Source of the DNA: Ostreococcus lucimarinus | Lineage: Eukaryota | DNA: 64,000 nucleotides | Assembly: GCA_000092065.1 (NCBI GenBank) | Contig: CP000582.1 | Strand: one strand, 5' to 3' | Shown: positions 25,143-64,000 of the stretch, piece after piece | How positions within the stretch are numbered: the first letter of the stretch is position 1 | How the letters are laid out: the number at the start of each line of letters is the position of its first letter | Notes under the pieces: generated by a model | Told to the model about the DNA's origin: nothing | What the model saw: the letters and a program-made list of their open reading frames with translations, nothing else | Database searches by the model: none | Position numbers and translations under genes: made by a program

Positions 25143-25357
25143 AGCTTCTCGCAGGCCGCGGACGAGTGGCGCTGGAATGATCGCATCAACCCCGCTTGAG
25201 GCAAACAAACAAGGACTGAAGGAGACAAGACTTCGCTCAGCTCAGGAGGACGTTGTAAATAAGCTCTGTGCTTGCTCTTTTTCTAATGAACGGTGAATTC
25301 GACGATGATTTCAAAGACGGTTTAACTTGAATATTTCAAGGGTGTCGTACGTGATAC

Positions 25358-27324: not shown

Positions 27325-27362
<38 letters not shown>

Positions 27363-29675: not shown

Positions 29676-32600
29676 TTATTTAGGTGTCATTTTCGACAAC
29701 AAATTGATCGCATCTGATAGCGCAGATTCATCAATTTTTTCTTCTATTCGCAGATCCAAGTACTTGTGTTCGATACCGAAGCATAAAGACAGCTCGTTGG
29801 AAATCCCTTCAAGCTCACTGATGACACAAATAGGAATATCAGACATGAAGTCAGGATTGACACGGAATAATGGATCACGCGATGAGTAGAGGAGCTGAGT
29901 GCAGCATAGAATACTCAATGTCTCGTTCGGGCATTCATTGACACTATTTGGATTGCTCTCTATAAATACTCTGCGCAAACTTGCGTTGACAGATGCGGAT
30001 TCGTTCTTGACTTCAGGATAAGAGGATGCAAGCAATGCCGCATAACTGAGAATTTTTCCTACATCCGAATTATTCTGTTGCGAGACGAGGACTTCATACT
30101 CTTTTGTGAATAAAGTAACCAAGCCAAGTATTTTTGGGTTCGACTGTATTGCATCACTGGCTTGCTCGCGCCAAGATGGGTCTGCGCATACATGTTGCTT
30201 TGTTTCACACAGTCTCACGAATTCTCGAGCGATATACACTCCTAAACCACGCGTGACTAGTATCACTTCATCGCCGTTGTTAATGTCTAAATAAGCGCGT
30301 ATGCGTTGCACATACATTGCGGCAAGCTCTGAGACGCTTGCTGCGGTGGAGGATTGCCAGTCCGTAGTAACGACGAAAGCTGCTGATTTTATCGACGAAG
30401 CTAGGCTGGAATAAAAACTAGTTCCACAGTCTACGTCATTGAGAAAGACGACTATGGGAGTTGTTGTATTACCATTCAATCGCGTAATAAAGCTTCGACT
30501 CACAGGTGAATTTCTATGCTTCCATTGCGGGAGTCGGTATCTCAAAGTAGCTGCAATGCGCTGAGATTGCTCAGATAGGTTACCTGGAGAAGCTGCATCT
30601 TTCCAGGCATTGGCCAGAGTCGGATTTATGAAACAATGCGACAGAATATTAGGGTCTGCGGCACCTTTTCCTCCCGGTTCGATGGGCTCAAACATTTTCG
30701 CATTATTATAAGAATAAGGATTTGTCATGTTCGTGCAAGAGGGCAATTTTAGAAAGTCGCATATTTTGTCGATATGCGACGTAGGATCAGAAACTAGGTC
30801 TTCGTAACAAATTTCCAATTGTCGAGTACTTTCTACATTGCGCAGAAAATCAATGATGTTGGAATTTCCTCGTGCCCATAATTTATCCATATGGCTCCAG
30901 ATCTGCTCGATGGTGGATGCAGATAGAAGCTCCAAACGTTTGCGGCCATTTAATTGTAGCAACTTCTCATTTTCAAGGATATCATGCCTTGATTTGAAAG
31001 TTTCTTTTGACATGGAGTGGATCGTTGCGTACGGATGCCTGTGTATGAATATATAGTACACATCTTCAAATATTGATTCGGCTCGTTCCAAAGTGTCCAA
31101 AGACCACGAATAAGGTGGCGACTTGTCCACTAGAATCCGATCGCCACACCAATTTTGAAGGACTTCATAGACATTCTTTGTTGACATGGAATGCATGTCG
31201 TGCATTATTTTATCAGCTTCATCGGCGAAACAGCCGCGAAGTTCTACAATAGCTTTACGCAAACCTTCAAACGCCCACGAGTGTCCACGAGATATTGACT
31301 CAAACCTTTGGTACATCGTCTCAAAATTTAGCAAGTAAAGTTCTTGAGGTGCAAAAATTGATGGATGAGAGTTTAGTATCATCTGCAAAAGAGTTGAACC
31401 AGACCTCGGCGACGACAACACGAATAGTATCTTTCCCTTCACCTTTGGCTCGTGGAGCCGTAATCGGGGCATCCATGAATTCGAATCTGTTAGTGGCGTA
31501 TACTTTTTAACTTGCGACTCTATCCACAAACAAATGCGCTCACCGGCACTTAATCCTACTGAGAATGTTTCGCGTGTGACCACTTTGATTGCGGCGTCAA
31601 CACTCGCTGCGATCCCTTTGATAGTATTCTCTCTGAATTCGCCAGACCCACAGTGGCTGAATCCAATATCTCGCAGTACATTGTGCAAAGGCTCTGACAT
31701 TGACAGTGGATGTCGGCGTCGACATGGCTCGTTTCTGCTAAGTGAGCTGTGTAACTCGTTCCAAATACATTTTTGTAGTTGGAAGGTCAACCGATTTGCG
31801 TCAACATGAGTATTCTGGTTAGCGGCGTTGCATCTGGTAAGTAGAACGTTTTGTCTGTGGCGAGGTTCTTGAAAAGCCCGGCAATCGCGGCGCACATTTG
31901 TGAGCACGTGTGCCATACTACCGCCATAACCAAAAGAGCTCGTGCCGATTATACCTCCGCTAGTGGGCCCTTTTAGCATAGGAAAGTGTGATCGCTTGTC
32001 CAAATTTACATCTCTCCATGTGTGTCCCATCTTCTCTGCGGTTGTGCACGCATGTTGCCCTAGTAGTAGATTGTTCAATTTTCTAAAATGAACCAATGGT
32101 GATGTCAATAAAGCGTGACTCATGAGGGCAGACTTGATCAGTGAAATCATACCAGATGCACCATCGAGGTGCCCTAAATTGGTATGTAAACTACCAAATC
32201 CTATGTTTGAAGTGCGAGATGGGTCTTCAAAACAGAATATACGCTGGTATGCACCGATTTCTATTGCGTCGCCAAGTGGCTCACCTAGTCCAGATGCTTC
32301 TACGAATGCAACGTCTGCTGGTAGTATGTTAGCATCAAGCAGTGCACGGTGCACTTTGTACTCAATTGCCGGTCCTCGAAGCGCTCTGAGCGAAGCGCCG
32401 CCGCCTTTATGTATACACGAGGACCCCAGGAGCGTGACAAGCATAAATTTGCTACTGGTGGCTTTGTATGTACAGATCATGACTGCACCGACGCCTTCAC
32501 CTCGCTCAAATCCGTCCGCTTGAGCATCAAATGTTTTGCATCGACCATCAGCTGGAAACATCTGACGTGCAATATGTAAATCTGATAATTGTCTGTGAAG

Positions 32601-35600
32601 TATGATATTCGAACTCGCCGCTATGGAGGAGTTAGCATATTCAGGATCTGATGGCACATTCACTTTAGAAGAACTCGTAGCGAGATGAATACAAACTAAT
32701 CCTGACGCAGACGCGCAGTCGATAGAGATAGATTCGCCTTGAAACCCAAATGTGTGACTTATTCGATTCGACGCAAAAGCATACGTCGATTCGGACATAC
32801 CATGCGCAATATTTGATAGCTTATCGTGGGCAGAGCAGCCTGAATCTGTGAACATCACACGGAACGCTTCGTCCCTTGCCACAGAATCACTGTCATTCGT
32901 ACATATACCTACGTATACTGATATTTTTTGCTCGTAAACGCGCGTACTCTTGTCTGAATATGGTACATCGGTAACTTCATGGCACGCTTTCAGCAACTCG
33001 CGCTGTTGCGGTTCAAGAAGTGATCGAACATCAGATCGGCCAATTCCAAAAAAGTTTGAGTCGAAAACGTCAAGCTGTCTTAGGAACGAGCCGTGCCTAC
33101 TATATTCGTGATAGACAAAATCCCGCTTTCTACTAATACCGGTGAAAGAAAATATACGTTCAACATCCCAGCGATCTATGGGGATCTTCCTAATTGCATC
33201 TATACCGTTTGCGATTGCGCCACAAAATTGTACCGGATGCATGATATGTTTGCAATCTGCGTCACCCGTGTGCACTGCGATACATGCCACCGAGCTTATG
33301 ATACCATCCTGAACGACGATACGCATGGGCTCTTTGGCAGATGGTTTGCAATCATCTATTTTTTGCCGAAGAGTCGTCTTATGGATAAATTTTGATAACG
33401 ATGTGATTGTTGGATGGTCAAACGCAACTGTTGACGGCAATGGTACGTCAAAGCATATTTCTATGGAACGGGATAGCTCCGTGAGATACATGCTGTCTAA
33501 TCCAGCGTCTATGAATGGCATATTAGCGTCAATAGTGTGTCCGAGAACCCGGCGAACATGATCAGACACAAGGGATTGTGTCTCTGATAACGTGCTGGGA
33601 TGTGTACGATCTGTACACAATAACGTTCGCTTTGAATCCGTTGAAACACCTTGCGACAGTAACGGGATGGACAATTTATCCCAAAGAAACATGTTTGCCA
33701 CTATGGTCGCATCTTGTATCATAACGCTGTTCAAAATCGACAGTATATGTATCCCAACCTTTGTGGGCACTGACCCAATACCAAATCGAGTCAGACTGTC
33801 AAGCTGCAATGCGCTTTGCTTCATCATTCCTGTCAAGTTTACCCACGCTCCCCATTGAACACTAACTTTATCGAGACCTTGATGGTGTGCGTAGTTGCAA
33901 TGTGCATCTAACGAAGAATTGGCAGCGACATAGTTCACTTGCCCAAACGTTCCTAGCAGCACAGAGATCGAGGAGTAATAATCAGTTTGAACTGATAACG
34001 AAGTCGGATCGCGAATACTCGCTAGAGATCCGATTAGTTTCGGAGACACGACGACACGAATCGTATAGGCTGTCTGTTTCGTCGCGATAGCGTCACGAAG
34101 AACACCGGATGCAAAGAATGAACGATTAACTTGAACTCGAGAATTGTGCCATGTATTGTCTGAGTAGTGGCAGTTATCAACGGAATCAACAGTTACTGAA
34201 TGGGATGAGGATCCGTTCCAAACGACAACAGAGTATGAACATCGACCACTTCGGTTCGTCAAGCGAATCAATCGCTGTCCATTCAGCAGTGCTGTGATGT
34301 ACACAAGTTTACCAATTTCACCAGCACCGTGTACTTCTGTTTGATTATTTTTACATTGATTGTTGCGACGCATGTTAGCCGGCGATGAATGAGTCGAACA
34401 TAGATTCGGCGTAAACGCAAGATGACCAACGGCACTGACGTGGCGAAGACGCGCTGTGGTGTTTGAGATACCCGACGGATGTATGCGAGCTGAATCTCCC
34501 GTACATACGGCATATGTTGTATTTTTATTTTCGACACAAAACACTCTTGGTAGTGTCGATAGTGTCAGGTCGGATATATGTTTATGTATACTCGATATTG
34601 GCGATGGAAATATGCGTTTTGTGACGGGTGCTGATTTGCTGAGTACACATAGGTGCTTAGATTCGCTCGAAGTTGTGAGCGCACAAATTGAATGCAAAAT
34701 ATTCACAACGGTTGGCAGTGATCCGCATCTGTGGACGCTGCGGCGGTAGTTGCACAATGTATGCCGAACAGTAGTTGTAGCACAAGTGTCGCCATTGGGT
34801 GCAACATTAACTCGAAGCGGGCTCGCCTCCCAGCGAAGAGCATACAAATATTCAACATTTGGAACACTTGAGCGAGATGAAGACGGCGATGTGGATGTGC
34901 ACAATACAGAGTCAGTTGAAATGTGCAAGAACACCTCTGGTGTAAACGTTGACCAATTTTGACGTGAATAATTGTACTTGAACCTGTGATCACTCAGTAT
35001 AATGCAACACATGAGCGTGTCGTGTTGCGCATATTGAACGGTACATGAACGTCGATATAGCTCAACAGTCCGTACATACGCGACGGAGTTACCGCCGGTG
35101 AACGTATCGAGCAAAGTACATCGCAAACGATGTTGAGGCTTTTCATGGTATTCATTGGATTCAACATGAATATCTGCAGAAGACAAGCCGCCATGCATTT
35201 CGCGAAATTTAACAAACCCTTGTTCTGCATCAGCGTATGCTGCCACTGTGTTCGCATTTAACCCGACGCCGTGTTCACCAGCTCGCACAGTAGCATGTGT
35301 GCTAGCGATAGCGTTGGATTGAGCATCAATTACTTTATATCCCGACCCGTACACGAGAACTTTATTTGATTTTAGATATGCATCTAAAACTTTCGAGGCA
35401 TACACAGTTGAAAGTACTACATTTTTTAGTGAGAGTTCTGTGGTACGATCATCCAAAATCAAACATGTGGCATCAGATGCAACTTGCAACGGTGATGAAG
35501 TAAGAGCATTTACGGTAGCGTTGAAGCGAATCGAAACACAAGCCATAGTGAGTGTCGATAAAGCGACTGTTGCACGCGAGCTTAGCTGTGATATCCAACA

Positions 35601-59600: not shown

Positions 59601-62600
59601 AGACTTACTACCGTCGTGTGCAATTATAAGCAAATCCAATGTGCGAAACCAGTCGTCGTCGGTCCATTCCGTTCTCCTGAAACACTCGTGCTGGTTTAGT
59701 AGACATTGAATCTCGCCCACAAACCCAGAGCGCAGCAGTGCAAGTTCACCATTATTGGTCACCGCTCTCATCACACACAGTGGGTGTTGGGTTCTTGTCG
59801 TATGCCATCGTAACTCGTGCGCCATCGATGTCGTATTATAGAAAATCTCACTGCCGTAAATTGTTGGAGATCGTGCGTTGTATGAATCGTACGTAGGATT
59901 ATCATAGCTCATTATCTGACAGCCAAATTTTGAGAAAAGACTTTTCAGCAAATATTGATATCTTTGTTTGCTCAAGTTTTCCACGACGAGTAGGCGAAGA
60001 CTCGAAGCATCAAAGCTAGATGAGAACTCGCTGCGCACCATGGACGCACCGATAGATTCCGGCGCTATAAGAATAGTTACGCGCTCTCTAGCGATTGAAC
60101 GATGAATTGTCCCAGAATCGGATTCATTTATGACAATTGAGCCTTTTGCATTTAAGACCGCAGTCGCCGTTGTGATGTTCAACAATCCCGCTTTATTTGC
60201 AAAGTGTAACGAAATATCAGTACAGTTAATGCTCAAACTCAGCTGCAAGTTTCTGATAAATGAATAGTGCATGTGAGTGCTGAAAAGTGTCAGTTTTGTA
60301 TGACCTGTAGCGTGCATGTGCACTACAAAGGGTGAAGTATCGACAGGCATAATACATGGATAATCTAATCCTTTCCCGGGGACTTTTTGAGAATATTGTA
60401 GTCTAATATTCGAGATGTTCTTTCCTAGTGCAGTGGGAGGCCTTGTGAAAACATACTTTCTCAAGAGCGTAGTAGAACCAAATATTACATGCGGTGAAAA
60501 CGACAAAACTTCTGCATCAGGAATGCTATCTGAGTCTCTGTGAACCAGCAGTACACCATCCAGCGAAGCAACGACGTAGTGGAGAAGAAGTCGAAGGTAA
60601 AAGTTTGACGTCACTGCATACACGCGCAGGCGAGAGTGTCTGACTTCCGGAATTAGGTTGAATATGTATTCGCGGTACGTGGTCATATGTTGGTCAATAT
60701 CCAAGTATATGCATACATTGCTCGAAGTAACATATAAAGGTTGGGAAATATAGATCGTCTTCACATTTGTGTTCGTCTGTGCGCTTTCATTCCGTGATTT
60801 TTGGATTGATTGCGACAGTCTAGCTCGCATTAGCCGAGAAGTGTGGGAATGTTGGAGAGAAGTACCTCTTTCCATACGTATGCTGCTTTTTAGAATGAGG
60901 CTCTTCAACAGAGTTTTCCCACTATGTAACTGCTCTTCACACGAAGACCGGCAGGTATGTTCAAGACAGGCAATCAAATTGTCGACTGTGCCTCTGCAAA
61001 ATTTGCTTTCGTCATACATCAGGGTGCCGCTAATGTCGGCATGAGAATCTTGAAGTCCCAACCAGAGCGAAAAAACGGCTTGTTGAAAATGCTCTACTCT
61101 GGACTCCATACATTTTGATCGACGCAGATTGCTGACAAAGCTGAAGCATGTCTCAAACATAGGATTGTTAGCATGAAAGTCACATCCATGTCGAGTGCAA
61201 AGCAAATGGATGATATCGTTGATGGGGACTAGAGGGCATTCACGAGCAGCGTTTATCATGTGGTGCACATTCGCGACAATATGTGAGAAATTGATGTTCA
61301 TGTCGACCACACATCGGCCTGGTACAACGGCAGCGTAACACCCTATGGTTGATTGTTGTGAAAGTGAACTTGCGCATCGTAAATCGAATGAGTTTCCGAG
61401 AGTGATTCTTGCCAGACGTGATGCCTGAACCTGGCGTTCAGTTATGGTGGCGATCACAATTAGCCAGCAAGAAAGCAAAATGGTGCAAGTAGTAGTACCT
61501 AAGATTCTTGCGGTAGACTTCAATAAACGCGTTGCGCTTGCACTGAGTTTGAAAGGAACTCCAGCGCCTCGCAAGATGTCTGGTGAATTTAGGTCAGTCA
61601 TGAAATCATGTCGCAGCTTTGAGGCATTGAAACTACTTCGCTTATTTTCTGTGAGAACGTTCTCCCAGTGTATCAACGCTTTATTTCTCAGTTGTGCACG
61701 ACGATCTTTTTGGTCTATCAGGTGATGAAACCAGGAGGTGTACGAATCGAACGTCCCAGGTCGATCGCATGTAAGTGTGTTTGATCTACACGCATGGGCG
61801 ATGATAGCTAAAGAGAGCGCGTCACCAGCAATGTGGTGCAAAACTACCAGCAATTTTGACTCGCCCAGGCGATACAAACGAAGTGGTGCGTCGTTGAAAA
61901 TATCGAATGGATATGACTTCGCTTCAGCTATGACGATCTCTGAACGTCGGTGAACCGAACCACAATTCTTTCTATCACACCTTAAGATTGGTATGGAAGA
62001 AATTGTCTCTCCTGATTTTATGGATACACTATCATTGGGGGAAAAACGCATTCGTAGAATTGGATGGTTTAGTAACATACAGTTGAAGACCTCAATTATA
62101 TCCTTCTCCATAGAGATGTCCACGATCATTGACATATTGTAAGCACAACTTGACGGATAGAGCTTGAAGTGCAGTACAAATATTTTTTGTTCTTGGCTTG
62201 ATACCAGGACGCTGTCGTCTTTTACGTTTGCATGAGCTTCACTTTGGGAGACTGCAGTCGCGACCTGATTCATTTCGAGTCGTTTTATCAATTCCTCCAT
62301 TGATAAACTTTCAGTCAACAAGCTGGCTGGTATGCGACATCCGAGTTGCTGTTGAAGCCTAGCAAAAAATTCAGTTATCCCTAAGGAATCCATCCCACTC
62401 TCTATGAGAGTTTTGTCTTTCATAAATGAGTGGAAACTAACATCGCGGTAGCATGCGGAGACGATTTCGTACAACGATAGTTGGGCACCGTTGTGATTGA
62501 ACTCAGATGGCACATCCGGTTTCTTATGGTTTGTTTTTCTTTTGCGCAAGTGTGACCTTGATACTGACTGGTGCTCTAAATAGTGGAACTTGGAACTAGA

Positions 62601-64000
62601 TGAATTTCGCGCTACCAGCACATCCCAATGGCCGACTTCATTGCGATACCTCTCCATGTAGAAAAGTTCAATGTGTAGGGTAATGCATTTCATCTCACGT
62701 GAACGATGATGTATAAGTGTCTTTGAGTCTTCAAATAGCTTGCTCGGTAGAGCGAGGCCGGATTTTGACAATGTGCGCCCATACAAACTCTGTGATGAAG
62801 GACGGAAACACAATCGCCGTGCTGATTGAGATTGTCTTGTGAAATGTGATGCACATCGAGTCAAACGTGCTTCGAATGCGAGCTGTCCGCAGGCTTCTGC
62901 ACTGTTGAAAGTTCCATCGTGCGTACTTAGAGAGACAGTCCAGACATCTCGTGCGCATGTTTTCGTGCGATGAATACACTTTGTGATCAGGAAACGATCG
63001 TCATTGCCCAGCATATTAAGGGTCTGAAGATAACTCTCGATGTGTGCGCCAATTCCATGCATGTGAGCGTGGATGCACAAAATTATCTTGCAAGTCCCTT
63101 TCAAGTGTAGAAAATGGCCACGCATGTTTATCATCGGACTTCCACTGTCTTCAGCTTGATTAAATTCTAGTCTATGCCATAAAAATTCCATATCAGTGGT
63201 TCCCAAATGTTTACACCATTCATCTGAAGCAGCCACGATGTGTGCGTTTGTTCCAGAGTATCCAAACGAGCTTATCGATTTTAAGGCTGGGTTTAACGCG
63301 CATCGGCCTCGATTGAATCTCAATACATTCACATACTCCTTTACACTATCAAGAACAATTGGATTCATGTTGCGCAAAGACAATAGAAATCTACTTAAGC
63401 GCATATCATAAAGTGTCATCACTAACCCATGGATTCCTGAAGACGCTTCGCTGTGCCCATGTAGCGTCTTACTTGCCTGGAAGACGACGGGAGAGCGACC
63501 CACACAGTATACTCGTTGAATTGCAGCTATCTCGATGGGATCACCGAGCTGCGTACCTGTGCCATGTAACTCAGACTCATCTACGCCATTTCCTTCGACA
63601 TTAATGCCTGAGTGCGATGCACAGGATTGAATTAGCTCAAATTGAGCGTTGCCGTTCGGTGCCACCAAGGAACTAGTCCTTCCATCTTGGTTTATTTTGC
63701 TTGCTTTGAAGTATCCTACGTTTTCACTGATATCGTTCGATGCAGCGTGATCCACGCGACGTTTTGCAAGAAGCAGGCCTGCATAATTTTCGGCCCGACC
63801 ATATCCGTCGGCTTCGACGTCCATCGCTTTACATCTGCCATCTGATGATAGCATTCCTGCTGCATTGCAGACTATTGAAGTTCTTGGATCAAATATTAAG
63901 TTGACCCCGAAGGCCAGTTGTTCACAATCTCGATAATGATCATCACAAACACATGAAAAGTGCACTGCAACTAACGATGAAGAACACGCGGTATCAATAG
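29676..64000 (-). CDS. giant modular type I polyketide synthase / NRPS hybrid megasynthase, AT-less (trans-AT-like), intronless, N-terminus outside window
   Basis: Single stop-free minus-strand frame, stop TAA at 29676-29678. It enters the window inside a KS (first residues ...GMLSSDGRCKAMDVEADGYGRAE...). KS signatures (DTACSSSLV / HGTGT.LGDPIE / GH.E.ASG) recur at least 8 times, plus one degenerate copy. Recurring DH (H...G....P), KR (TGG.G.IG ... Y..AN) and ACP (G.DSLG) domains are present. There is one ER (LNFRDVL ... HGTTGGVGLA), one C domain (HHIAGDA), a degenerate A domain and a PCP. No GHSxG/AFHS acyltransferase motif was seen anywhere. Confidence 0.95.
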   Translation of the reverse strand, partial: IDTACSSSLVAVHFSCVCDDHYRDCEQLAFGVNLIFDPRTSIVCNAAGMLSSDGRCKAMDVEADGYGRAENYAGLLLAKRRVDHAASNDISENVGYFKASKINQDGRTSSLVAPNGNAQFELIQSCASHSGINVEGNGVDESELHGTGTQLGDPIEIAAIQRVYCVGRSPVVFQASKTLHGHSEASSGIHGLVMTLYDMRLSRFLLSLRNMNPIVLDSVKEYVNVLRFNRGRCALNPALKSISSFGYSGTNAHIVAASDEWCKHLGTTDMEFLWHRLEFNQAEDSGSPMINMRGHFLHLKGTCKIILCIHAHMHGIGAHIESYLQTLNMLGNDDRFLITKCIHRTKTCARDVWTVSLSTHDGTFNSAEACGQLAFEARLTRCASHFTRQSQSARRLCFRPSSQSLYGRTLSKSGLALPSKLFEDSKTLIHHRSREMKCITLHIELFYMERYRNEVGHWDVLVARNSSSSKFHYLEHQSVSRSHLRKRKTNHKKPDVPSEFNHNGAQLSLYEIVSACYRDVSFHSFMKDKTLIESGMDSLGITEFFARLQQQLGCRIPASLLTESLSMEELIKRLEMNQVATAVSQSEAHANVKDDSVLVSSQEQKIFVLHFKLYPSSCAYNMSMIVDISMEKDIIEVFNCMLLNHPILRMRFSPNDSVSIKSGETISSIPILRCDRKNCGSVHRRSEIVIAEAKSYPFDIFNDAPLRLYRLGESKLLVVLHHIAGDALSLAIIAHACRSNTLTCDRPGTFDSYTSWFHHLIDQKDRRAQLRNKALIHWENVLTENKRSSFNASKLRHDFMTDLNSPDILRGAGVPFKLSASATRLLKSTARILGTTTCTILLSCWLIVIATITERQVQASRLARITLGNSFDLRCASSLSQQSTIGCYAAVVPGRCVVDMNINFSHIVANVHHMINAARECPLVPINDIIHLLCTRHGCDFHANNPMFETCFSFVSNLRRSKCMESRVEHFQQAVFSLWLGLQDSHADISGTLMYDESKFCRGTVDNLIACLEHTCRSSCEEQLHSGKTLLKSLILKSSIRMERGTSLQHSHTSRLMRARLSQSIQKSRNESAQTNTNVKTIYISQPLYVTSSNVCIYLDIDQHMTTYREYIFNLIPEVRHSRLRVYAVTSNFYLRLLLHYVVASLDGVLLVHRDSDSIPDAEVLSFSPHVIFGSTTLLRKYVFTRPPTALGKNISNIRLQYSQKVPGKGLDYPCIMPVDTSPFVVHMHATGHTKLTLFSTHMHYSFIRNLQLSLSINCTDISLHFANKAGLLNITTATAVLNAKGSIVINESDSGTIHRSIARERVTILIAPESIGASMVRSEFSSSFDASSLRLLVVENLSKQRYQYLLKSLFSKFGCQIMSYDNPTYDSYNARSPTIYGSEIFYNTTSMAHELRWHTTRTQHPLCVMRAVTNNGELALLRSGFVGEIQCLLNQHECFRRTEWTDDDWFRTLDLLIIAHDGSKSVTPSRKPVDVFRLKSNSALHNSADDISSEKVQFSPNQDVRSISHSISPIEIGIVATSGNILQTSDAISCHQVSKFDVAKDLNTTLHDDGLSYNFGNHHDLRGFDSSCFRLTLQEIISMDSQQQNLLFYAQKLLSSTSSYQKTKNTSLALGISQFGDVSLSVNDQSVMGQAHSVASGRIAFFFDIHGPCVSVDTACSSSLVALHLVSTFFALTKCTFGLPAAVNHIICENVTDALYRLGMLSLEGRCKTLDISADGYVRSEYTCLLAVVDLSKSDFSPARVVQVCATQINQDGRSSALTTPNGTSQVSLLRQALRSCHKCSNSFNISMHGTGTALGDPIEINAILEAIQSAKLVNINASKSIAGHAEAASGMINLVFTIQESTNHLFSQILHLRRLNTHIVCDIDSSGSLVSLPRENVSLVENSSLRYFGTSAFAFQGTNAHTISRLLASHHYSVRWSTLQIAGRHGQLSQLSSSLRWACSMSTGKTSQSFILKIDSVLYKHHRVRNRTICPATVLYRVMFLVGHPEQHTMLYHPIRHAVQSVIISTSLYLDKPNVDLSLKLDESGYCTLSSGTSTSFTTSNTVSKGLHVCYAQISGMLRLSDYGAPSLYQSFGGVGSVGRTTSDVFCGHNRAKHEDCSLQLGFVGSIRSQDPPLHLFLPSGVTSYTHRKSEIRTRAIVSTLPSLNLNDRSDILSDHFASNKAYSTILFHIVSRRMRTDQFSNPTGMSHTKPSAFKYSIIAFQPLLLGHGLRSNIIASELRKHSTFTNVRGVSDFLQLAHALRRATKVSVHTTREMEQLDASSMMRVALSEGMISIVDSVSHPSSASVRHVIVPWESPNVNNSVVVIQNKHAYLKSITEVSRQNVQGVRNHVSGSLIRRDFDSPLKQISLYLTGGTGHIASNILQWYCSKFQVMAILHGRSGRFLHTNRSLDSAFIRVSRHGIEPNSCVDLHMYHCAGVLHDALIQFQNFFTCSKVLAPKISITSELYNKYACLDFRRLTLCSSISCLFATRGQLGYVAANAFMDSSSNMCRNVGSSIISIQWGAWSNGGMVDEVVSSRYIKSGISMLLPTDAVRLLVQNIDINCTLLLCHIGMNHFNIGYSSTCGVYFCSGNLKLTSNPGKYSKAENSSYQINSSSRVLRTRNHIEADVLKILKSVTNCQDVMDASIRWDFDSFSAIEFSEILSASFDIKLPLTLAFDFVSYVDVAHYIFDKMHDNVITMGPLQTSKISSKETIILSYVTGSYPDVQNEAADLISHVPFAKWDILVDGPKWKTSSIFGSFLFPQTSFFDFELFQISQAESRRIDVQQRLALNDTLKCVHMIDDANLSGILVAISSMDHCGLDISKTGFATDAAFSVVPGRVSFHHNLGGVSIAIDTACSSSLVAVDVARRYLRDEGNHIIVYGVNVILLQSTMSLFAVTGMLADDGRCKSLDVCADGYSRAEASHACLLHSGAKQKLPTKTSGYVCSILHSIINQDGRSSALTAPNGQAQQRALVELLHGSRAGHVECSYLHSTGTPLGDPIEIGAYLGGLVHFESHSHAVQLEAVKCRVGHGEPASGVLTLSQVAKSLISSNTGNVSLRVMNPLVEDRVCTHAAIVINRQCHQMEFLADCPKFVTTSAFAFQGTNCMIALTLGFESHNVTSVLKNLKVQWNVDIFTPHPQIQYIPAKGLIELQFKHLHSNYLLDHTVKDTCILPNTAILEIFLSAHAGLFSTCRVAGAANQLTCAPIPLSSKQRHRKIHLRIEDYKSRIVIQHTMHACAHIADVPNRAHTRCSIESKNTFAASKYVYSRTARIPRWMHIEQMFAFEPNVMDCSLQLRACTSVVDTPNVLLLPVGVKMATISNCSGNSMLSCRISLKNCGESDHCMQNATRNFTVSLSCASFRRARFDADIKLKRQAKIKVIYTNSLYRKDTMGRKDAINFSTILCTNPIQRASLKFESGVNTTQLISSSFCALQNVATHVQVAELGLSTTHTPCISSAVETVCKIACEEISTPYYIKSMGSYDITRNMGCRDHTIPQCSYIDSLGTEQTTISHKVVSVRFLEAQRVKATISSRYLPRILDSTFSTDTMQFDGGILMSGGLGALSTIIARHIYTNKPRTGELICASRSGRSARFDLNHSCPFMEISVHKIDVASWADFSATFAAPNLACEYVLHASGLLYDGLSVHQNPNKIRTVCAPKHRAAEKLQCAFSLTALRAWLVFSSTSHVLKSTGQANYAAANAMTDSFAQNQTQCGNVWKSIQWGAWDCTDGMSTPTVLQRLHDLGVGSVDEKSALCMLDKILSSKGLSIVLVNKFKELPHQRRPRARKLHEHTNLSKNERGFVERDAGKDIPVKMPMRSFEDIRLSVSAIVSSVMGMRVQDDVSLVEMGIDSIVSVDIRDQISSALNSDLPVTLVFNYPTVRDISAYLATLLSYQDSVPSLQSNLMLEAASNDDSIHSIPILSSLLPNSDNHMGTRWSTDVDHTIGKSVRCGVTIESPDRFDCSYFNVGRQEALYIDPQHRIVLMLVDNCVSVVKDMDNSWGVGVGISSAEYATLCAYSESNFLGTGTIASVASGRISYTFALSGRSVCVDTACSSALICVTMFHRTLDTHMRGCCLGGINLTLLERSSLIFEMSKMLSADGHCKTLDASADGYVRAEAGMMHILLWRHTLVSNSIILHGSAANQDGRSSSLTAPSGLAQEAVMKLATQRRDVSVETIQLHGTGTILGDPIELSATMSAYSYSSYTVALQANKSHCGHAEPASGSINILKASESVSSSKCISIRLLRCINTHISETFNQAHKNSMRSPRAIVPLLNAHFSSETHASVSAFAFQGTNAHAILQNRIKRATNLPIRWSMRLLQRDRIWITPTLPQRLHSLTVAKSTHVVMQGNIISTNNTGLFDHSVHGKAILPAASMLLLCSSAVRMFVETKIRNMCDVTIPTARVILPANGKAQINDIRIDTTSSALEMYSESILFFKCLWKCTRSTKVYQTHEYANPLVFDNNTMVCTSRSSIKIDFFHDYHSSSLDNTFQSCAALHSPKSFSSYIPTGLRELYLSNAFTDVIDRTTYVKIPLTTKISREPLSEADYSMYADNFSIGSVIKFRMKSSRIRASIHKVHKNTLWNLVRYRASKHLSDLHGHSFQYFPWASADSSCLNRTALAVISHVSARSYRIDTHIPRHTYSWSMYSSPLPKNSNIYSKMKTCEIAATYLKIEAMGISATKHLPGIGKLQNDDEVHVIPSRIPNIFICENNSYYGTSLRNGVSISGATGAIGSCLSLFLLHSDASNLSLSSRRGWSAHIAKLRVHSRFGQSIVRSFKSDRGIAREGLTSIDRNRINTFVYASGSLCDAVVLRQTPETMSTVTSAKVLGYVRDHALANIQAQRSIACSSITGFIYSFGQMNYSISNNVLDECVKLMFNSGFSSSSVQFGAWTDAVFGMARLDAHLEKRLLASINVAHGLFMLNLSMLNACTVPTYIASRLPALTSPSTPNIVSDSIQTKTSSYSFDTIADFLRHAIMSSIDMETYTYIDDAQPIMQLGLDSLALADLRSSINAKFQIDLPIISMFDYPTVHELSKAIFSFTDARTTSDSVISLDLKSKSLGLNPHEGTGSNVHKISNISLRYPNNIKNLQSLRTSLVTGAELQRRLSTRFDVELLSGSTRFAVLLRDIFYFDNTIFHLTPQETICMDPQQRHLLNCCIECLHGVSDTKIYHHMGVFIGVMWNDYQFILRSTKWAFYAYAGTGNGISFLASRPSFTFGMNGPSIAIDTACSSSMVAAHLACASMDGSHASSTLSGGTQCILIPDTFVTLSSLGAIAYDGRCKTLDAGADGYGRGEAFGLLHLEPVQPAHRYESRHDFVLSACTVNQDGRSSSFTAPNGPSQQKLIQVALLRIENASSRSCYLSLHGTGTSLGDSIELSSLMQLQSCFSFLLIGTSKSSLGHTEGSAGVVGILDSIVCSTHAVNFGMRLCRNLNPHLSVFTHVASEGNVHIARAMTTAPQIELTASSSFGMSGVNAHTIIRAIPSKLTHRCCSTRARLLCSQMFHAGVGTLYSNVQLISVFKSASRAVFTVNICRPAWSSLHDHSVNHTPVLPAAASLIIPIIPLDDLLIDSVLQMKTILLIPIVLKQLDTISVVTYRDSTMRLMLRSGESATTSKFRKTNDGSNIREPFQQLGHCIRSRRGALKTKMSKYVGSACATVGAAHLIDCSMHILYCLMDKENNDVVHVPAVIHIFQLQQLPLEHQFESSSSAKKKDAPESNHTTSNLALLRRLQCKPLSTMNRAFERENLNKKVQSSVLYALMWCAVHHIKHVCPQTPHSYNLGRSMDTNTSTSYRYAPSYAAMMQNVHASIRLVGLATSSTPVGRAGENMSNVISASVIHTISMVSVADLNQTYHLDVHSDSPLSLKRASSHFKKAECESRAEPIQSQYLARARYVPMIHGCRKVPLNNFVLQPSPRGAIKDLTPVPSIALDSGITVSKPFVRTRILAVGLNFRDVLNILDMYPGVTEPPGTDFSGIIDDVYSHSHGDAIFGLTTGCLGDVAYVHRSLFSIKPPRVNFIEASAIPTVFLTVDECFSSIRRLKTTPAHLLVHGTTGGVGLAIKSICSMMGDSLSGTSSNVKKRHLMRYLGIPCMSNSRSTKFSQSVFLSSLSRSCPVDVVLNTLTSPGMIAASLSILNVHATFLELSKRGIWSADAFEKENYKATYEVKAIDHQSIAELSFRLSLLGLFMCAGLIQPSICLSNEFRFIRQSMREMTRASHIGKVVVYHKTVMSGHQLVTGGTGAIGILLTRWLLGIGANSVILLSRNGHNNGIMRLPRDSRLHFTLENADISCSEFSTIFRSLSLSDSVGIFHTSGVLRDALICDQTSAHLAEVSAPKVSGVKRLHSALKDAYLVKTFLNFSSLAATIASIGQSNYTYANSWLDQWSSTCKERGMVNESIQWGAWLAGDGMANSDGISRRMERVGLQYIQPSVAMSIIQTRLDHSILHHNFTLLSQQLIATGLNWSRFMSFAVKNRFLYGKKQNFNQAGNVDSKNTASAKDTEVLVVQKLLQIFKEVSGHELTADSAIMEAGVDSLGAVESRNAIADAFTITDLPSTLIFDYPTVKSIAGLILGAENEIKRTETELPIDSPTRSIEVRISSVSSPGQYQHALDDVSGVPENRWDIRADDYALIRFGRFLHNIEYFDIALFSMRRAEATAVDPQQRILLARALDGRAHAVNGQYSEGCGVVVGISSTDYSAITSRAGKLQATGGSLSVACGRISFTYNLRGTCASIDTACSSSLVGSHVARNAVLTGECDSMICCGVNITLNPTTTIVFRTAGMLADDGRCKTLDMAANGYVRGEGSTLLLLTPHSDGVRDDYCMFYASASSVNQDGRSSSLTAPHGPSQQSVILHTMLQSGNDNSSSGGIELHGTGTSLGDPIEVGAARTVLSSLKRLPVVTFSAMKTRCGHTEPASGGMGLCGIVDCIFRLNTPALVHLCQLSTHIQSILNQDTAERCGIALPRQATQSAWQCDAHAVNRGVSAFAFQGTNAHVSVRRDYVMKSLPDASVMQHSIECWISHAAFGLRLVHAVETSECLRIQLPPLKTRHIDRDHCVRGRLVLPATSFLELTLTCVKQLHTMTVNVVRRTQIHAACLLDTWRNDALSFKISQTTGSISVSSQRAGHTSCKVVQTMLTQRTPSPKVYYANVSKSSLDLHFKVHSKKVQTLDQSFAAELDAHVQSLSALRLNTFSDDSFELHLPVSLEICTHQTSLARSRDHALSRFSPQKMQSDHIAQQATENQLAMHELLGKKVASHSEPAAMGSERYYGGRQGRHAIDMIYRATWKTENTYRGPLLRTEGVTNVYSHLAAGRQSASRVASLAVQSLHASSNLCVIRTTATELVSACPRLCADTQSSIGRCIPVAGAMWGIFRSGAHEMSQRLVCVDLGASSIVHAKATDFLHSNSDSNEVHAKSISNRHVRTPTLSKVCPNLHAKMLWRDPRRAMAKHIAQCDSNALLHPCSDIYTGGVGGIGALIYEWNASICDRPFVLVGRSGRGKHIAPAKFTSLLTIQRVNLCVRSETERLVSCSVRNVGRVLHMSGVLKDSILMKQTFSTVSIAFANKTQGAQAVCHENLPQMSLTHVFFSSIAALLGSPGQTNYAGANALLDTLAQLGTTMGWRCMSLQWGPWGGSYGMAVRSAVGTPRNFGSLGIEVIDPHTALRTLRTLIQPPNMFSIYAVCPLRATGLHAWSVSTSHSAVSPPNAPYVDQNSTQLKIKISAGERGVPSCVIHGDEIAGRVASIVNDAVGRPLDAKEPLLDAGLDSLGAVELRSRLNDEFAVQLPSTVVFDHPSVYALAEAVAGELSHGKSNYGSAQVLRNSTIDVTYSAQVCISSVSSPGQYQHALDDVSGVPENRWDIRADDYALIRFGRFLHNIEYFDIALFSMRRAEATAVDPQQRILLARALDGRAHAVNGQYSEGCGVVVGISSTDYSAITSRAGKLQATGGSLSVACGRISFTYNLRGTCASIDTACSSSLVGSHVARNAVLTGECDSMICCGVNITLNPTTTIVFRTAGMLADDGRCKTLDMAANGYVRGEGSTLLLLTPHSDGVRDDYCMFYASASSVNQDGRSSSLTAPHGPSQQSVILHTMLQSGNDNSSSGGIELHGTGTSLGDPIEVGAARTVLSSLKRLPVVTFSAMKTRCGHTEPASGGMGLCGIVDCIFRLNTPALVHLCQLSTHIQSILNQDTAERCGIALPRQATQSAWQCDAHAVNRGVSAFAFQGTNAHVSVRRDYVMKYLPDASVMQHSIECWISHAAFGLRLVHAVETSECLRIQLPPLKTRHIDRDHCVRGRLVLPATSFLELTLTCVKQLHTMTVNVVRRTQIHAACLLDTWRNDALSFKISQTTGSISVSSQRAGHTSCKVVQTMLTQRTPSPKVYYANVSKSSLDLHFKVHSKKVQTLDQSFAAELDAHVQSLSALRLNTFSDDSFELHLPVSLEICTHQTSLARSRDHALSRFSPQKMQSDHIAQQATENQLAMHELLGKKVASHSEPAAMGSERYYGGRQGRHAIDMIYRATWKTENTYRGPLLRTEGVTNVYSHLAAGRQSASRVASLAVQSLHASSNLCVIRTTATELVSACPRLCADTQSSIGRCIPVAGAMWGIFRSGAHEMSQRLVCVDLGASSIVHAKATDFLHSNSDSNEVHAKSISNRHVRTPTLSKVCPNLHAKMLWRDPRRAMAKHIAQCDSNALLHPCSDIYTGGVGGIGALIYEWNASICDRPFVLVGRSGRGKHIAPAKFTSLLTIQRVNLCVRSETERLVSCSVRNVGRVLHMSGVLKDSILMKQTFSTVSIAFANKTQGAQAVCHENLPQMSLTHVFFSSIAALLGSPGQTNYAGANALLDTLAQLGTTMGWRCMSLQWGPWGGSYGMAVRSAVGTPRNFGSLGIEVIDPHTALRTLRTLIQPPNMFSIYAVCPLRATGLHAWSVPTSHSAVSPPNAPYVDQNSTQLKIKISAGERGVPSCVIHGDEIAGRVASIVNDAVGRPLDAKEPLLDAGLDSLGAVELRSRLNDEFAVQLPSTVVFDHPSVYALAEAVAGELSHGKSNYGSAQVLRNSTIDVTYSAQVCISSVSSPGQYQHALDDVSGVPENRWDIRADDYALIRFGRFLHNIEYFDIALFSMRRAEATAVDPQQRILLARALDGRAHAVNGQYSEGCGVVVGISSTDYSAITSRAGKLQATGGSLSVACGRISFTYNLRGTCASIDTACSSSLVGSHVARNAVLTGECDSMICCGVNITLNPTTTIVFRTAGMLADDGRCKTLDMAANGYVRGEGSTLLLLTPHSDGVRDDYCMFYASASSVNQDGRSSSLTAPHGPSQQSVILHTMLQSGNDNSSSGGIELHGTGTSLGDPIEVGAARTVLSSLKRLPVVTFSAMKTRCGHTEPASGGMGLCGIVDCIFRLNTPALVHLCQLSTHIQSILNQDTAERCGIALPRQATQSAWQCDAHAVNRGVSAFAFQGTNAHVSVRRDYVMKYLPDASVMQHSIECWISQLSSRATVALSTLTMACVSIRFNATVNALTSSPLQVASDATCLILDDRTTELSLKNVVLSTVYASKVLDAYLKSNKVLVYGSGYKVIDAQSNAIASTHATVRAGEHGVGLNANTVAAYADAEQGFVKFREMHGGLSSADIHVESNEYHEKPQHRLRCTLLDTFTGGNSVAYVRTVELYRRSCTVQYAQHDTLMCCIILSDHRFKYNYSRQNWSTFTPEVFLHISTDSVLCTSTSPSSSRSSVPNVEYLYALRWEASPLRVNVAPNGDTCATTTVRHTLCNYRRSVHRCGSLPTVVNILHSICALTTSSESKHLCVLSKSAPVTKRIFPSPISSIHKHISDLTLSTLPRVFCVENKNTTYAVCTGDSARIHPSGISNTTARLRHVSAVGHLAFTPNLCSTHSSPANMRRNNQCKNNQTEVHGAGEIGKLVYITALLNGQRLIRLTNRSGRCSYSVVVWNGSSSHSVTVDSVDNCHYSDNTWHNSRVQVNRSFFASGVLRDAIATKQTAYTIRVVVSPKLIGSLASIRDPTSLSVQTDYYSSISVLLGTFGQVNYVAANSSLDAHCNYAHHQGLDKVSVQWGAWVNLTGMMKQSALQLDSLTRFGIGSVPTKVGIHILSILNSVMIQDATIVANMFLWDKLSIPLLSQGVSTDSKRTLLCTDRTHPSTLSETQSLVSDHVRRVLGHTIDANMPFIDAGLDSMYLTELSRSIEICFDVPLPSTVAFDHPTITSLSKFIHKTTLRQKIDDCKPSAKEPMRIVVQDGIISSVACIAVHTGDADCKHIMHPVQFCGAIANGIDAIRKIPIDRWDVERIFSFTGISRKRDFVYHEYSRHGSFLRQLDVFDSNFFGIGRSDVRSLLEPQQRELLKACHEVTDVPYSDKSTRVYEQKISVYVGICTNDSDSVARDEAFRVMFTDSGCSAHDKLSNIAHGMSESTYAFASNRISHTFGFQGESISIDCASASGLVCIHLATSSSKVNVPSDPEYANSSIAASSNIILHRQLSDLHIARQMFPADGRCKTFDAQADGFERGEGVGAVMICTYKATSSKFMLVTLLGSSCIHKGGGASLRALRGPAIEYKVHRALLDANILPADVAFVEASGLGEPLGDAIEIGAYQRIFCFEDPSRTSNIGFGSLHTNLGHLDGASGMISLIKSALMSHALLTSPLVHFRKLNNLLLGQHACTTAEKMGHTWRDVNLDKRSHFPMLKGPTSGGIIGTSSFGYGGSMAHVLTNVRRDCRAFQEPRHRQNVLLTRCNAANQNTHVDANRLTFQLQKCIWNELHSSLSRNEPCRRRHPLSMSEPLHNVLRDIGFSHCGSGEFRENTIKGIAASVDAAIKVVTRETFSVGLSAGERICLWIESQVKKYTPLTDSNSWMPRLRLHEPKVKGKILFVLSSPRSGSTLLQMILNSHPSIFAPQELYLLNFETMYQRFESISRGHSWAFEGLRKAIVELRGCFADEADKIMHDMHSMSTKNVYEVLQNWCGDRILVDKSPPYSWSLDTLERAESIFEDVYYIFIHRHPYATIHSMSKETFKSRHDILENEKLLQLNGRKRLELLSASTIEQIWSHMDKLWARGNSNIIDFLRNVESTRQLEICYEDLVSDPTSHIDKICDFLKLPSCTNMTNPYSYNNAKMFEPIEPGGKGAADPNILSHCFINPTLANAWKDAASPGNLSEQSQRIAATLRYRLPQWKHRNSPVSRSFITRLNGNTTTPIVVFLNDVDCGTSFYSSLASSIKSAAFVVTTDWQSSTAASVSELAAMYVQRIRAYLDINNGDEVILVTRGLGVYIAREFVRLCETKQHVCADPSWREQASDAIQSNPKILGLVTLFTKEYEVLVSQQNNSDVGKILSYAALLASSYPEVKNESASVNASLRRVFIESNPNSVNECPNETLSILCCTQLLYSSRDPLFRVNPDFMSDIPICVISELEGISNELSLCFGIEHKYLDLRIEEKIDESALSDAINLLSKMTPK
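29679..30460 (-). other. C-terminal thioesterase-like alpha/beta-hydrolase domain of the megasynthase (nucleophile position apparently Gly)
   Basis: The N-terminal TE-type motif PIVVFLNDVDCGTSFYSSLASSI is present. At the expected GxSxG nucleophile elbow the sequence reads LVTRGLGVYIAREF, with no Ser by eye alignment. Confidence 0.5.
30610..31450 (-). other. sulfotransferase (ST) domain of the megasynthase
   Basis: The PAPS 5'-phosphosulfate loop KILFVLSSPRSGSTLLQMILNSHP (codons located at 31395-31409 by direct reverse translation) and a 3'-PB-like IHRHPYATIHSM are present. The domain is about 280 aa and sits between the terminal KS0 and the TE-like domain, as in CurM / olefin synthase. Confidence 0.7.
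31900..33240 (-). other. degenerate non-condensing ketosynthase (KS0) preceding the ST domain
   Basis: The active-site region reads ISIDCASASGLVCIH (codons at about 32699-32728) versus canonical IDTACSSSLV. The catalytic Cys position is Ser. HGTGT is replaced by EASGLGEPLGDAIE, and GHxEAASG is partly retained as NLGHLDGASG. Confidence 0.6.
35587..44262. repeat. intragenic tandem repeat: 3,702-bp unit x about 2.34 (copies 35587..39288, 39289..42990, partial 42991..44262), >99% identical
   Basis: Identical antisense ORFs recur every 3702 bp (35610/39312/43014 and others). The protein segment KS-[DH-KR-ACP-KS]-[DH-KR-ACP-KS] is repeated with only isolated substitutions (KSLPD/KYLPD, SVSTSH/SVPTSH). 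Homology breaks at 44262/44263 and 35586/35587. Confidence 0.9.
45390..46260 (-). other. enoylreductase (MDR-type ER) domain within a fully reducing DH-ER-KR-ACP module
   Basis: The motifs ILAVGLNFRDVLNILDMYPG and LLVHGTTGGVGLAIKSI (codons at 45881-45903) are present. The domain is followed by KR QLVTGGTGAIGILLTRWLL (about 45348) and ACP EAGVDSLGAVESR (about 44460). Confidence 0.7.
59165..60740 (-). other. degenerate adenylation-like (AMP-binding superfamily) region plus PCP-like carrier domain
   Basis: Weak A-core remnants are spaced as in A domains: A3-like SPFVVHMHATGHTKLTLFSTH, A4 FDAS, A6-like GELALLRSGFVGEIQ, and A7-like WFRTLDLL. A carrier-like HHDLRGFDSSCFRLTLQEI follows, corresponding to GGDSI/GGHSL. 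Confidence 0.4.
60900..62210 (-). other. NRPS-type condensation (C) domain
   Basis: The motif LLVVLHHIAGDALSLAIIAHAC (the HHxxxDG core; codons at about 61820-61840 verified by reverse translation) lies within an approximately 430-aa region. It follows an ACP (ESGMDSLGITEFFARL). Confidence 0.65.

Follow-up and report, generated by a model that had tools for sequence, protein, structure and literature searches.

Comparison with described polyketide synthases

The giant polyketide synthase (PKS) OluPKS3 of Ostreococcus lucimarinus (JGI protein 30000) was described by Shelest et al. 2015 (PMC4661987), who cite Palenik et al. 2007 and Sasso et al. 2011 for it, as a noniterative, trans-acyltransferase (trans-AT) enzyme with 14 ketosynthase (KS) domains. 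Its published domain string is ACP-KS-DH-KR-ACP x3 -KS-KR-ACP x2 -KS-ACP-C- in the first half, continued after the condensation (C) domain by KS-KR-ACP-KS-KR-ACP-KS-DH-KR-ACP-KS-ER-KR-ACP- and then by KS-DH-KR-ACP-KS-DH-KR-ACP-KS-KR-ACP-KS-'P-loop NTP hydrolase' (PMC4661987). The same work reports the central C domain with 'no A domain predicted', the duplication of modules 11-13 and the KS14 motifs DCASASG/SGLGE. Here, a 64-kb stretch of O. lucimarinus DNA (contig CP000582.1; the whole stretch is called the window hereafter) was analysed. A giant reading frame on its minus strand is very probably the 3' part (KS6 to stop) of OluPKS3, and an AT-less assembly-line account is proposed for it.

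The frame runs on the minus strand from 63998 down to 29679 through 11,440 consecutive stop-free codons. The original prediction, made from the sequence alone, had described a giant, single, uninterrupted 34.3-kb frame truncated by the window without stating the strand, and this was confirmed; its 11,429 aa (29676..63965) are the same frame counted from the first GTG. Since the frame is unclosed at the window edge, the N-terminus of the PKS is missing from the window. At the base composition of the ORF itself, a run of 11,440 codons would be free of stops with a probability of ~1e-280, and the longest other frame in the window has ≤1,194 codons.

29676-29678, minus strand: stop codon TAA, which ends the giant PKS frame
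29679..63998, minus strand: open reading frame of 11,440 codons, very probably the 3' part of OluPKS3 (KS6 to stop), by the match of its architecture to the published gene

Four independent public assemblies match the window between 25.0 and 35.7 kb at 99.98-100% identity, and three flanking proteins are exact matches of XP_001416131.1, XP_001416373.1 and XP_001416136.1 (O. lucimarinus CCE9901 RefSeq). The domain order from KS6 onward is that of the published OluPKS3 string and the KS14 motifs agree with Table S2/S3 of PMC4661987, which places KS6-KS14 of OluPKS3 in the window. Species, trans-AT call, lone C domain and duplicated modules 11-13 are also the same, and the only differences lie in the annotation: the end annotated as 'P-loop' is identified here as a sulfotransferase (ST) of CurM/Ols type followed by a predicted serine-less thioesterase (TE) fold, modules 7, 8 and 10 have DH-like motifs that are not listed in the published string, and the stretch after the C domain is read as a possible relic of an adenylation (A) domain. 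The gene has been published, as have the AT-less architecture, the duplication of modules and the position in a low-GC outlier region, and it therefore constitutes no new kind of system; what had been proposed as a distinctive biosynthetic system is the published OluPKS3. Taken as a whole, the original observation was confirmed and its interpretation was partly supported.

MicPKS2 of Micromonas RCC299 (JGI 107347) is collinear with the window from the C domain and OtaPKS1 of O. tauri from KS6, both up to the terminal KS0-'P-loop'. They share with OluPKS3 the terminal KS motifs and the repeated KS-DH-KR-ACP block before the penultimate module. MicPKS2 carries C?-A?-PCP2 at its N-terminus, whereas in OluPKS3 this position is internal, the A domain is unrecognisable and the PCPs are gone; OluPKS3 further differs from both proteins in 5-6 additional modules, OtaPKS4-like, fused upstream. 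In O. tauri the line is split into OtaPKS4, which is like modules 1-5, and OtaPKS1 (PMC4661987). From this split and the C-A-PCP start in Micromonas, OluPKS3 looks like a fusion of two assembly lines, as judged from domain order.

CurM (curacin A) and Ols (Synechococcus PCC 7002) resemble OluPKS3 in the ST and in the domain order of the end. OluPKS3 differs from them in a dead KS between the last ACP and the ST, in the TRGLG sequence without Ser and the unconserved His column of its TE fold, in PQELY for PPELH within the ST and in its AT-less modules, those of CurM and Ols being cis-AT. Bacterial trans-AT PKSs (bacillaene PksJ/PksL) share the lack of an integrated AT, the short segment after the KS and a non-elongating KS near the end, whereas OluPKS3 is a single eukaryotic polypeptide with no discrete AT nearby (64-kb window) and without methyltransferase or beta-branching domains. 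PKZILLA-2 of Prymnesium parvum (10.1101/2024.01.29.577497) is likewise a giant protist PKS of trans-AT type, with a final module read as curacin-like ST and TE offloading, but it belongs to the haptophyte lineage and has a known product, prymnesin.

Domain organization of the assembly line

Pfam searches were run on three overlapping pieces of the ORF (E≤0.01) and on ten inter-domain pieces (E≤1). As the Pfam listing gives the best stretch per family only, all domain copies were mapped by phmmer seeded with the ORF's own domains, and the copies of KS, ACP, KR and DH were aligned for motif inspection. The families matched were ketoacyl-synt N and C, KR, PP-binding, PKS_DH_N, Condensation, ADH_zinc_N (ER) and Sulfotransfer_3/_1. 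The mapped copies amount to nine KS and eight ACP domains, seven KRs, and one each of the C, ER-like and sulfotransferase domains. From N to C the order is KS6(partial)-ACP6-C-(537 aa orphan)-KS7-DH-like-KR-ACP-KS8-DH-like-KR-ACP-KS9-DH-KR-ACP-KS10-DH-like-ER-KR-ACP-KS11-DH-KR-ACP-KS12-DH-KR-ACP-KS13-(406 aa unassigned)-KR-ACP13-KS14(0)-ST-TE fold, and the order read earlier by eye proved essentially correct.

63399..63998, minus strand: KS6, partial, cut by the window edge, DTACSSS and HGTGT present (phmmer, motifs)
62229..62486, minus strand: ACP6, GMDSLG (phmmer, motif)
60954..62207, minus strand: condensation domain of nonribosomal peptide synthetase (NRPS) type, HHIAGDA intact (PF00668 E 7.3e-23, motif)
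59499..60953, minus strand: orphan stretch after the C domain, possible decayed adenylation relic, no PCP after it (marginal hhalign; position in MicPKS2)
55929..59471, minus strand: module 7 (phmmer, alignments), with KS7 58476-59471, DH-like HxxxNxxxxP 57309-58211, KR7 56409-57011 and ACP7 DFDSF 55929-56201
52344..55880, minus strand: module 8 (Pfam, phmmer, alignments), with KS8 54879-55880 (HSTGT), DH-like HxxxDxxxxP 53739-54626, KR8 52809-53411 and ACP8 52344-52616
48894..52238, minus strand: module 9, with KS9, DH9 (canonical HxxxGxxxxP), KR9 and ACP9 (Pfam, phmmer, motifs)
44325..48692, minus strand: module 10, with KS10, DH-like HxxxHxxxxP, ER 45378-46301, KR10 and ACP10
35587..44263, minus strand: tandem array of modules 11 and 12 plus KS13 (self-comparison)
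34368..35585, minus strand: unassigned 406-aa stretch of module 13, from KS13 to KR13, no DH motif
33354..34367, minus strand: KR13 33789-34367 and ACP13 33354-33617 (GLDSM), the last carrier domain
32139..33104, minus strand: KS14, predicted non-elongating, DCASASG and SGLGE (alignment; published motifs)
30519..31442, minus strand: sulfotransferase domain of CurM/Ols 'activating' type (motifs, sequence matches)
29679..30491, minus strand: predicted C-terminal alpha/beta-hydrolase (type I thioesterase) fold without Ser nucleophile (structure prediction)

Eight of the nine KS domains keep Cys-His-His (DTACSS, H(G/S)TGT and GH; PF00109/PF02801 E down to 1e-122) and are predicted to be condensation-competent. 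The phosphopantetheine serine is present in 8/8 ACPs, in the context (G/F)xDS, and K/S/Y is kept by all seven KRs. An intact KS and carrier serine recur from module to module, and by these motifs the window PKS is a modular type I polyketide synthase.

The DHxVxxxxxLP motif with its catalytic His was found in modules 7-12, in agreement with the by-eye DH calls for these modules; it was mostly missed by Pfam and by the published annotation, and the canonical HxxxGxxxxP occurs in modules 9, 11 and 12 only. Module 10 is the only fully reducing module in the window. Its ER corresponds to ADH_zinc_N/N_2 under the Pfam cut-off, stands in the expected position and is published as ER (PMC4661987). In module 13 no DH His motif was detected, and KR13 keeps K/S/Y; however, ~250 aa of this module are unassigned, and the distal part of the 406-aa stretch aligns with the pre-KR region of an orthologous fragment. 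Searched against the PDB with phmmer, neither the post-C stretch nor the gaps of modules 7 and 13 gave a meaningful match.

Absence of acyltransferase domains

ACYLTRANSFERASE was absent: PF00698 gave no match at E≤0.01 in the large pieces or at E≤1 in the ten inter-domain pieces. Neither GHSxG nor AFHS motifs were detected in the giant ORF. The original prediction had seen no cis-AT in any module and had allowed that one might have been overlooked between KS and DH; none was found there at E≤1, and the KS-to-DH spacing of ~87 aa is too short for an AT. A separate AT profile was built from AT-bearing proteins, and it recovers untrained ATs at 1e-19 to 1e-36. Its first version was contaminated by a GQSFG segment adjoining the ST; untrained ATs were still recovered with it, and none was seen in the window. 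No match to this profile was obtained in the six frames of the 64 kb, that is, neither a cis-AT in the ORF nor a discrete AT in the 29.6-kb flank. The PKS is AT-less (trans-AT-type), with no acyltransferase inside its modules.

The literature on algal AT-less PKSs assumes a discrete AT and names none. When KS11 was compared with the PDB, trans-AT and cis-AT KSs were matched about equally well (7zma 3.8e-81, CurL 9.6e-70, PksL 1.4e-59). According to Shelest et al. (PMC4661987), the algal AT-less KSs form their own clades and the AT was lost independently.

The C-terminal end: KS14, sulfotransferase and thioesterase fold

The original prediction of a C-terminal sulfotransferase preceded by a non-elongating last KS was upheld. 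In KS14 the active-site Cys is replaced by Ser (DCASASG) and the first His is lost (SGLGE), and the same terminal KS motifs are kept in O. tauri and Micromonas (PMC4661987). ACP13 is followed by KS14(0) and a 237-aa linker before the ST, so that there is no direct ACP-ST adjacency.

The last 820 aa were used in a homologue search. An algal-type group (P0001-P0018) was obtained that is 33-57% identical and has KS, ACP and ST with no recognisable hydrolase; one cluster of this group includes Micromonas pusilla CCMP1545 proteins. The same search also gave many bacterial ACP-ST-TE proteins of the CurM/Ols kind. As a side observation, transcriptome entries labelled Pelagococcus subviridis and Chrysotila/Pleurochrysis share the 90%-identity cluster of P0006 with the PKS-terminus proteins of M. 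pusilla CCMP1545, a mixture that suggests transcriptome cross-contamination and not shared genes.

The ST half matches 4gbm (E 6.8e-53) and 4gox (E 1.3e-48). Its motifs PRSGST, DKSPPY and RHPY..S are intact, and PRSGST, DKxPxY and RHPY..S are invariant across the algal and bacterial sequences. By these motifs it belongs to the activating subfamily of sulfotransferases with sites for binding of 3'-phosphoadenosine 5'-phosphosulfate (PAPS). The bacterial PPELH reads PQELY in the ST of the window (model residue 48 = aa 10888) and in 16/17 algal-type sequences; this His-to-Tyr change is clade-specific and adjoins an invariant Glu.

No thioesterase match was given by Pfam in the tail. For aa 10841-11440 an AlphaFold model was computed from an alignment of 28 sequences (mean pLDDT 81.7, pTM 0.83), and in this model the last 270 aa adopt a predicted type I thioesterase (alpha/beta-hydrolase) fold. 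The TE-like end proposed originally thus stands as a fold by structure prediction, but not as a Pfam thioesterase or as one with a Ser nucleophile: TRGLG (aa 11249-11253) stands in place of the GHSxG nucleophile elbow, and the nucleophile column holds Gly, Asp or Pro in 16/17 algal-type sequences against Ser in 11/11 bacterial ST-TE sequences. Of the elements of the CurM/Ols ST-TE unit, the ST is present, and an adjacent ACP and a Ser/His-catalytic TE are absent. In the literature searched, no link was found between CurM-type STs and the PKSs of Mamiellales.

Proposed route and release step

In the proposed account, malonyl would be delivered to every ACP by a separately encoded AT outside the window. 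The chain would cross from ACP6 to KS7 over a vestigial NRPS insertion that keeps an intact C domain but has a decayed A domain and has lost its PCP. Enoyl units would result from modules 7-9, 11 and 12, and a saturated unit from module 10. Module 13, which has a KR and no DH motif, would stop at a beta-hydroxyacyl-ACP, the type of substrate used by the CurM/Ols sulfotransferase, and by analogy with CurM/Ols the ST may sulfonate the module 13 hydroxyl with PAPS. In CurM/Ols, the TE then hydrolyses the thioester, and decarboxylation with loss of sulfate yields a terminal alkene, a mechanism established for those two systems and cited for PKZILLA-2 (10.1101/2024.01.29.577497). In the window the TE fold has no Ser and a dead KS lies between ACP13 and the ST, which makes release the weakest link of the model.

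Several points weigh against this account. Besides lacking the Ser, the TE-fold tail stands in an algal clade in which the bacterial catalytic His column is not conserved; KS0 lies between ACP13 and the ST, unlike in CurM/Ols; and the His of PPELH is Tyr in nearly the whole algal-type group. The DH motifs of modules 7, 8 and 10 are non-canonical, and therefore the reduction pattern is tentative. Loading in trans by a separately encoded AT is inferred from absence, with no AT gene within the 64-kb window. The copy number of the tandem array rests on one (reference) assembly, because short-read contigs break or collapse there. Finally, only one polyketide-like mass feature, unconfirmed and enriched in O. 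tauri, has been reported (10.1101/2025.04.21.649811).

Given the serine-less TE, the intervening KS0 and the His-to-Tyr change in the ST, a CurM-like, alkene-forming release is not assured. That the ST/TE-fold end makes no terminal alkene, either because the sulfate is kept or because the end is a scaffold and release is carried out by another enzyme or chemistry, is a serious possibility, short of being the favoured one. The substitutions in the nucleophile column, with the unconserved His column, speak for it, as do the KS14 motifs, which have lost Cys and His and yet are kept in O. tauri and Micromonas, and the clade-specific His-to-Tyr change beside the conserved Glu. For the release step in OluPKS3, most of the remaining weight falls on the CurM-like outcome.

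Tandem array of modules 11-13

The array unit of 3,702 bp is exactly one module (1,234 aa, KS-DH-KR-ACP) and is present in 2.34 copies at 35587-44263. The copies are 99.9% identical, with 4 mismatches in 4,975 compared positions (2 synonymous, 2 non-synonymous). KS11, KS12 and KS13 are identical at the amino acid level (100%), and all other KS pairs share 27-43%. The array has sharp edges, located in the N-terminal region of the KS and in the post-KS linker, a pattern that fits unequal recombination between KS-coding repeats; most simply, the array was produced and kept uniform in this way. Two repeated modules are found in O. tauri, three in O. lucimarinus and four in Micromonas (PMC4661987).

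Short-read metagenome/SRA contigs agree with the window (99.98-100% identity) as far as the edge of the array, where they either stop (L004-L006) or collapse the repeats (L003). A check for an assembly chimera, called for originally, was answered in part: the region from 25.0 to 35.7 kb is covered by the four assemblies mentioned above, but the array copy number comes from the reference assembly only. The array, or the single giant frame, could be an artefact of mis-joined or mis-counted repeats, as the perfect identity of the three KS copies, the near-identity of the units, the failure of short-read assemblies at the array and the structural variability between strains reported for PKS loci of the region (10.1101/2025.04.21.649811) might suggest. 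We consider this improbable. The copies are set apart by four differences (two non-synonymous) and hence are no mere duplicate of a single sequence; the repeat period equals one module precisely and preserves the frame; the duplication of modules 11-13 was reported from the reference genome, with equivalents in O. tauri and Micromonas (PMC4661987); and independent contigs confirm the unique 3' 6 kb plus one array unit.

Two side observations concern the array. Short-read contigs of near-identical environmental Ostreococcus, from Tara, JGI, ENA and Logan, all break off at the array or collapse it (35.6-35.7 kb), and therefore gene calls on metagenomes shorten the PKS to about 1,560-2,020 aa. 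Furthermore, the GC content of the array by codon position is 0.57/0.49/0.49 against ~0.48/0.44/0.43 elsewhere in the gene. As every codon position shows the increase, the signal is not specifically synonymous; GC-biased gene conversion between copies, amino-acid content or a different origin may account for it.

Condensation domain and the stretch after it

The C domain covers positions 7-429 of the 456 of PF00668 (E 7.3e-23), with HHIAGDA at aa 721. In an exhaustive protein search it gave 1,456 hits, the best true one with E 6.5e-32 and 26% identity. The post-C stretch comprises 537 open codons (aa 1016-1552). It has no Pfam match at E≤1, including PF00501 (AMP-binding) and PP-binding, and no PDB match at E≤10. 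No homologue of it was found in either of two large protein database searches, word-indexed searches queried with it or with the C domain were equally empty, and none of the 1,456 proteins matching the C domain aligns past it. A carrier domain between C and KS7 was not found either, with no PP-binding match and no GxDS within aa 1016-1552.

When compared with our own profile of genuine A domains, the post-C stretch scored -1.5 bits. An hhalign comparison with the A-domain profile placed Q215-345 on T174-312, collinear with cores A3-A5, at a marginal P of 0.026 (10/500 shuffles were as good). In this alignment ATGHTKLTL is paired with STGxPKGV (A3), ERVTILIAPES with ExVTxxxxxPS, LRLLVV--ENLS with LRxvxxGGExL, and LFSKFGC with LxNxYGP (A5); by eye, the A6/A7-like strings GELALLRSGFVGE and FRTLDL come next in order. 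All the A-core motifs are degenerate: A3 TSGSTGxPKG reads HATGHTKLTL and A5 NxYGPTE reads SKFGCQI. A single-sequence AlphaFold model of the stretch was unusable (pLDDT 32.7). The annotation C?-A?-PCP2-KS... of MicPKS2, collinear with the window from the C domain, lends positional orthology to a decayed A domain. Of the NRPS module claimed originally, the C domain therefore stood, the degenerate A domain found marginal support and the PCP was not detected. The NRPS part is probably vestigial, with C intact, A at best a decayed relic and PCP lost, as read from the motifs.

A working hybrid PKS-NRPS, in which a divergent A domain and a carrier insert an amino acid between modules 6 and 7, would agree with the full-length C domain and its intact HHxxxD, with the 537 codons kept open, with the collinearity on A3-A5 followed by A6/A7-like strings and with the MicPKS2 annotation. 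It is nevertheless very unlikely: the searches described above returned neither an AMP-binding or PP-binding domain nor any structural match or homologue, no C-domain relative extends beyond C, every A-core motif is destroyed, GxDS is missing between C and KS7, and the published analysis of OluPKS3 (PMC4661987) likewise predicts no A domain.

Three apparent homologues of the C/post-C region at 62-64% identity (P0187, P0200 and P0219) were rejected, as they are the window sequence after complete C-to-T conversion. The C-to-T-converted window is identical to them at 149/153, 93/95 and 77/81 positions, respectively.

ORF aa 610-762: P0187, gene call on bisulfite reads
ORF aa 1106-1200: P0200, gene call on bisulfite reads
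ORF aa 775-855: P0219, gene call on bisulfite reads

Conservation of the post-C stretch was withdrawn, because the entries that had suggested it stem from gene calling on assemblies of bisulfite-converted reads. In related species such entries can give a false impression of conservation, and the residues that escape C-to-T conversion in P0187, P0200 and P0219 may mark methylated cytosines.

Genomic context

The left 25 kb of the window carry dense, mostly single-ORF eukaryotic and plastid-related genes, among them inositol-3-phosphate synthase, CemA-like, ABC1 kinase, 2-oxoacid dehydrogenase E2, GNAT and Toc75/Omp85-like genes. No tRNA or Rfam features were found in the window. The GC content of third codon positions (GC3) is 0.69-0.81 to the left of 25.2 kb and 0.41-0.49 in the Toc75-like gene, LTV1 and the PKS; overall, GC drops by ~15 points, with 45% GC next to 60% GC DNA.

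25209..25357, no strand: compositional boundary between the GNAT gene (24207-25208) and the Toc75-like gene (25358-26890)

LTV1 adjoins the PKS stop codon in four assemblies. The GC3 step at ~25.3 kb looks like the edge of the low-GC outlier (BOC1/candidate mating-type) region of chromosome 2, with the PKS just inside. A recent preprint (10.1101/2025.04.21.649811) describes giant type I PKS genes as conserved in the low-GC BOC1 region of Mamiellales and as variable in structure, and this region is considered a candidate for a non-recombining mating-type locus (PMC5498103). Low GC3 is shared by two eukaryotic genes beside the PKS, LTV1 and the Toc75-like gene, so the low GC is regional and no mark of foreign origin. 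A bacterial contaminant or a recent horizontally acquired island, for which the fall in GC, the bacterial-type trans-AT/ST-TE logic, and the cyanobacterial origin of the closest solved ST structures and of many ST homologues could be adduced, is extremely improbable, as these neighbours have GC3 ~0.45, LTV1 abuts the PKS stop, the low-GC region is known on chromosome 2 (10.1101/2025.04.21.649811, PMC5498103) and the best homologues of ST plus tail are the algal-type group including M. pusilla. The absence of introns, called striking at first, is unremarkable, since the flanking genes, too, are densely packed and consist of single ORFs; what is mildly curious about it is only that many introns have been reported for the low-GC region (10.1101/2025.04.21.649811).

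Other observations were made in the flank. The POTRA match of the Toc75/Omp85-like gene (minus strand) is truncated already at residue 10 of the stop-free stretch 25361-27145, and an acidic 137-aa ORF lies just upstream of this gene (27165-27578, minus strand); an intron or an upstream exon near 27.15 kb is likely, which agrees with the earlier remark on an intron in the neighbouring gene. An 863-aa ORF in the standard-GC part (18856-21447, plus strand) has a sub-threshold DUF659 match (E 8.4e-7). DUF659 is associated with hAT-type transposases, and this ORF, which lies within a few kb of the compositional boundary, may derive from a transposase. Upstream of the ABC1-kinase domain, the plus-strand ORFs 12097-13824 (575 aa, no Pfam match) and 13374-16940 (1,188 aa, ABC1 at residues 806-1078 only) overlap by 450 bp in different frames, and may be one gene with an intron or a frame change.

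Implications for the Mamiellales enzymes

What this analysis adds is incremental: the subfamily of the ST, a TE fold lacking Ser, additional DH-like motifs, a possible relic of an A domain and the reading of the gene as a fusion. Some of these points may have been published already. A joint reading can be put forward in which KS0, CurM-type ST and serine-less TE form a distinct, undescribed offloading variant of Mamiellales and, in addition, OluPKS3 is a fusion of two lines across a decaying C-A-PCP loading module; that both parts hold together is rather unlikely, on the motifs and domain orders compared here. If the triad were such a variant, it might for example release a sulfated product, rely on an Asp or on water for release, or leave this step to a partner enzyme. 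The terminus combines a clearly intact ST of CurM/Ols type with a KS and a TE that are dead by canonical criteria, and the KS motifs are kept across Ostreococcus and Micromonas. The chemistry of this offloading end and its product are what merits specialist attention, in an organism that is genetically tractable and abundant in the ocean, this being among the largest genes of the smallest free-living eukaryote.

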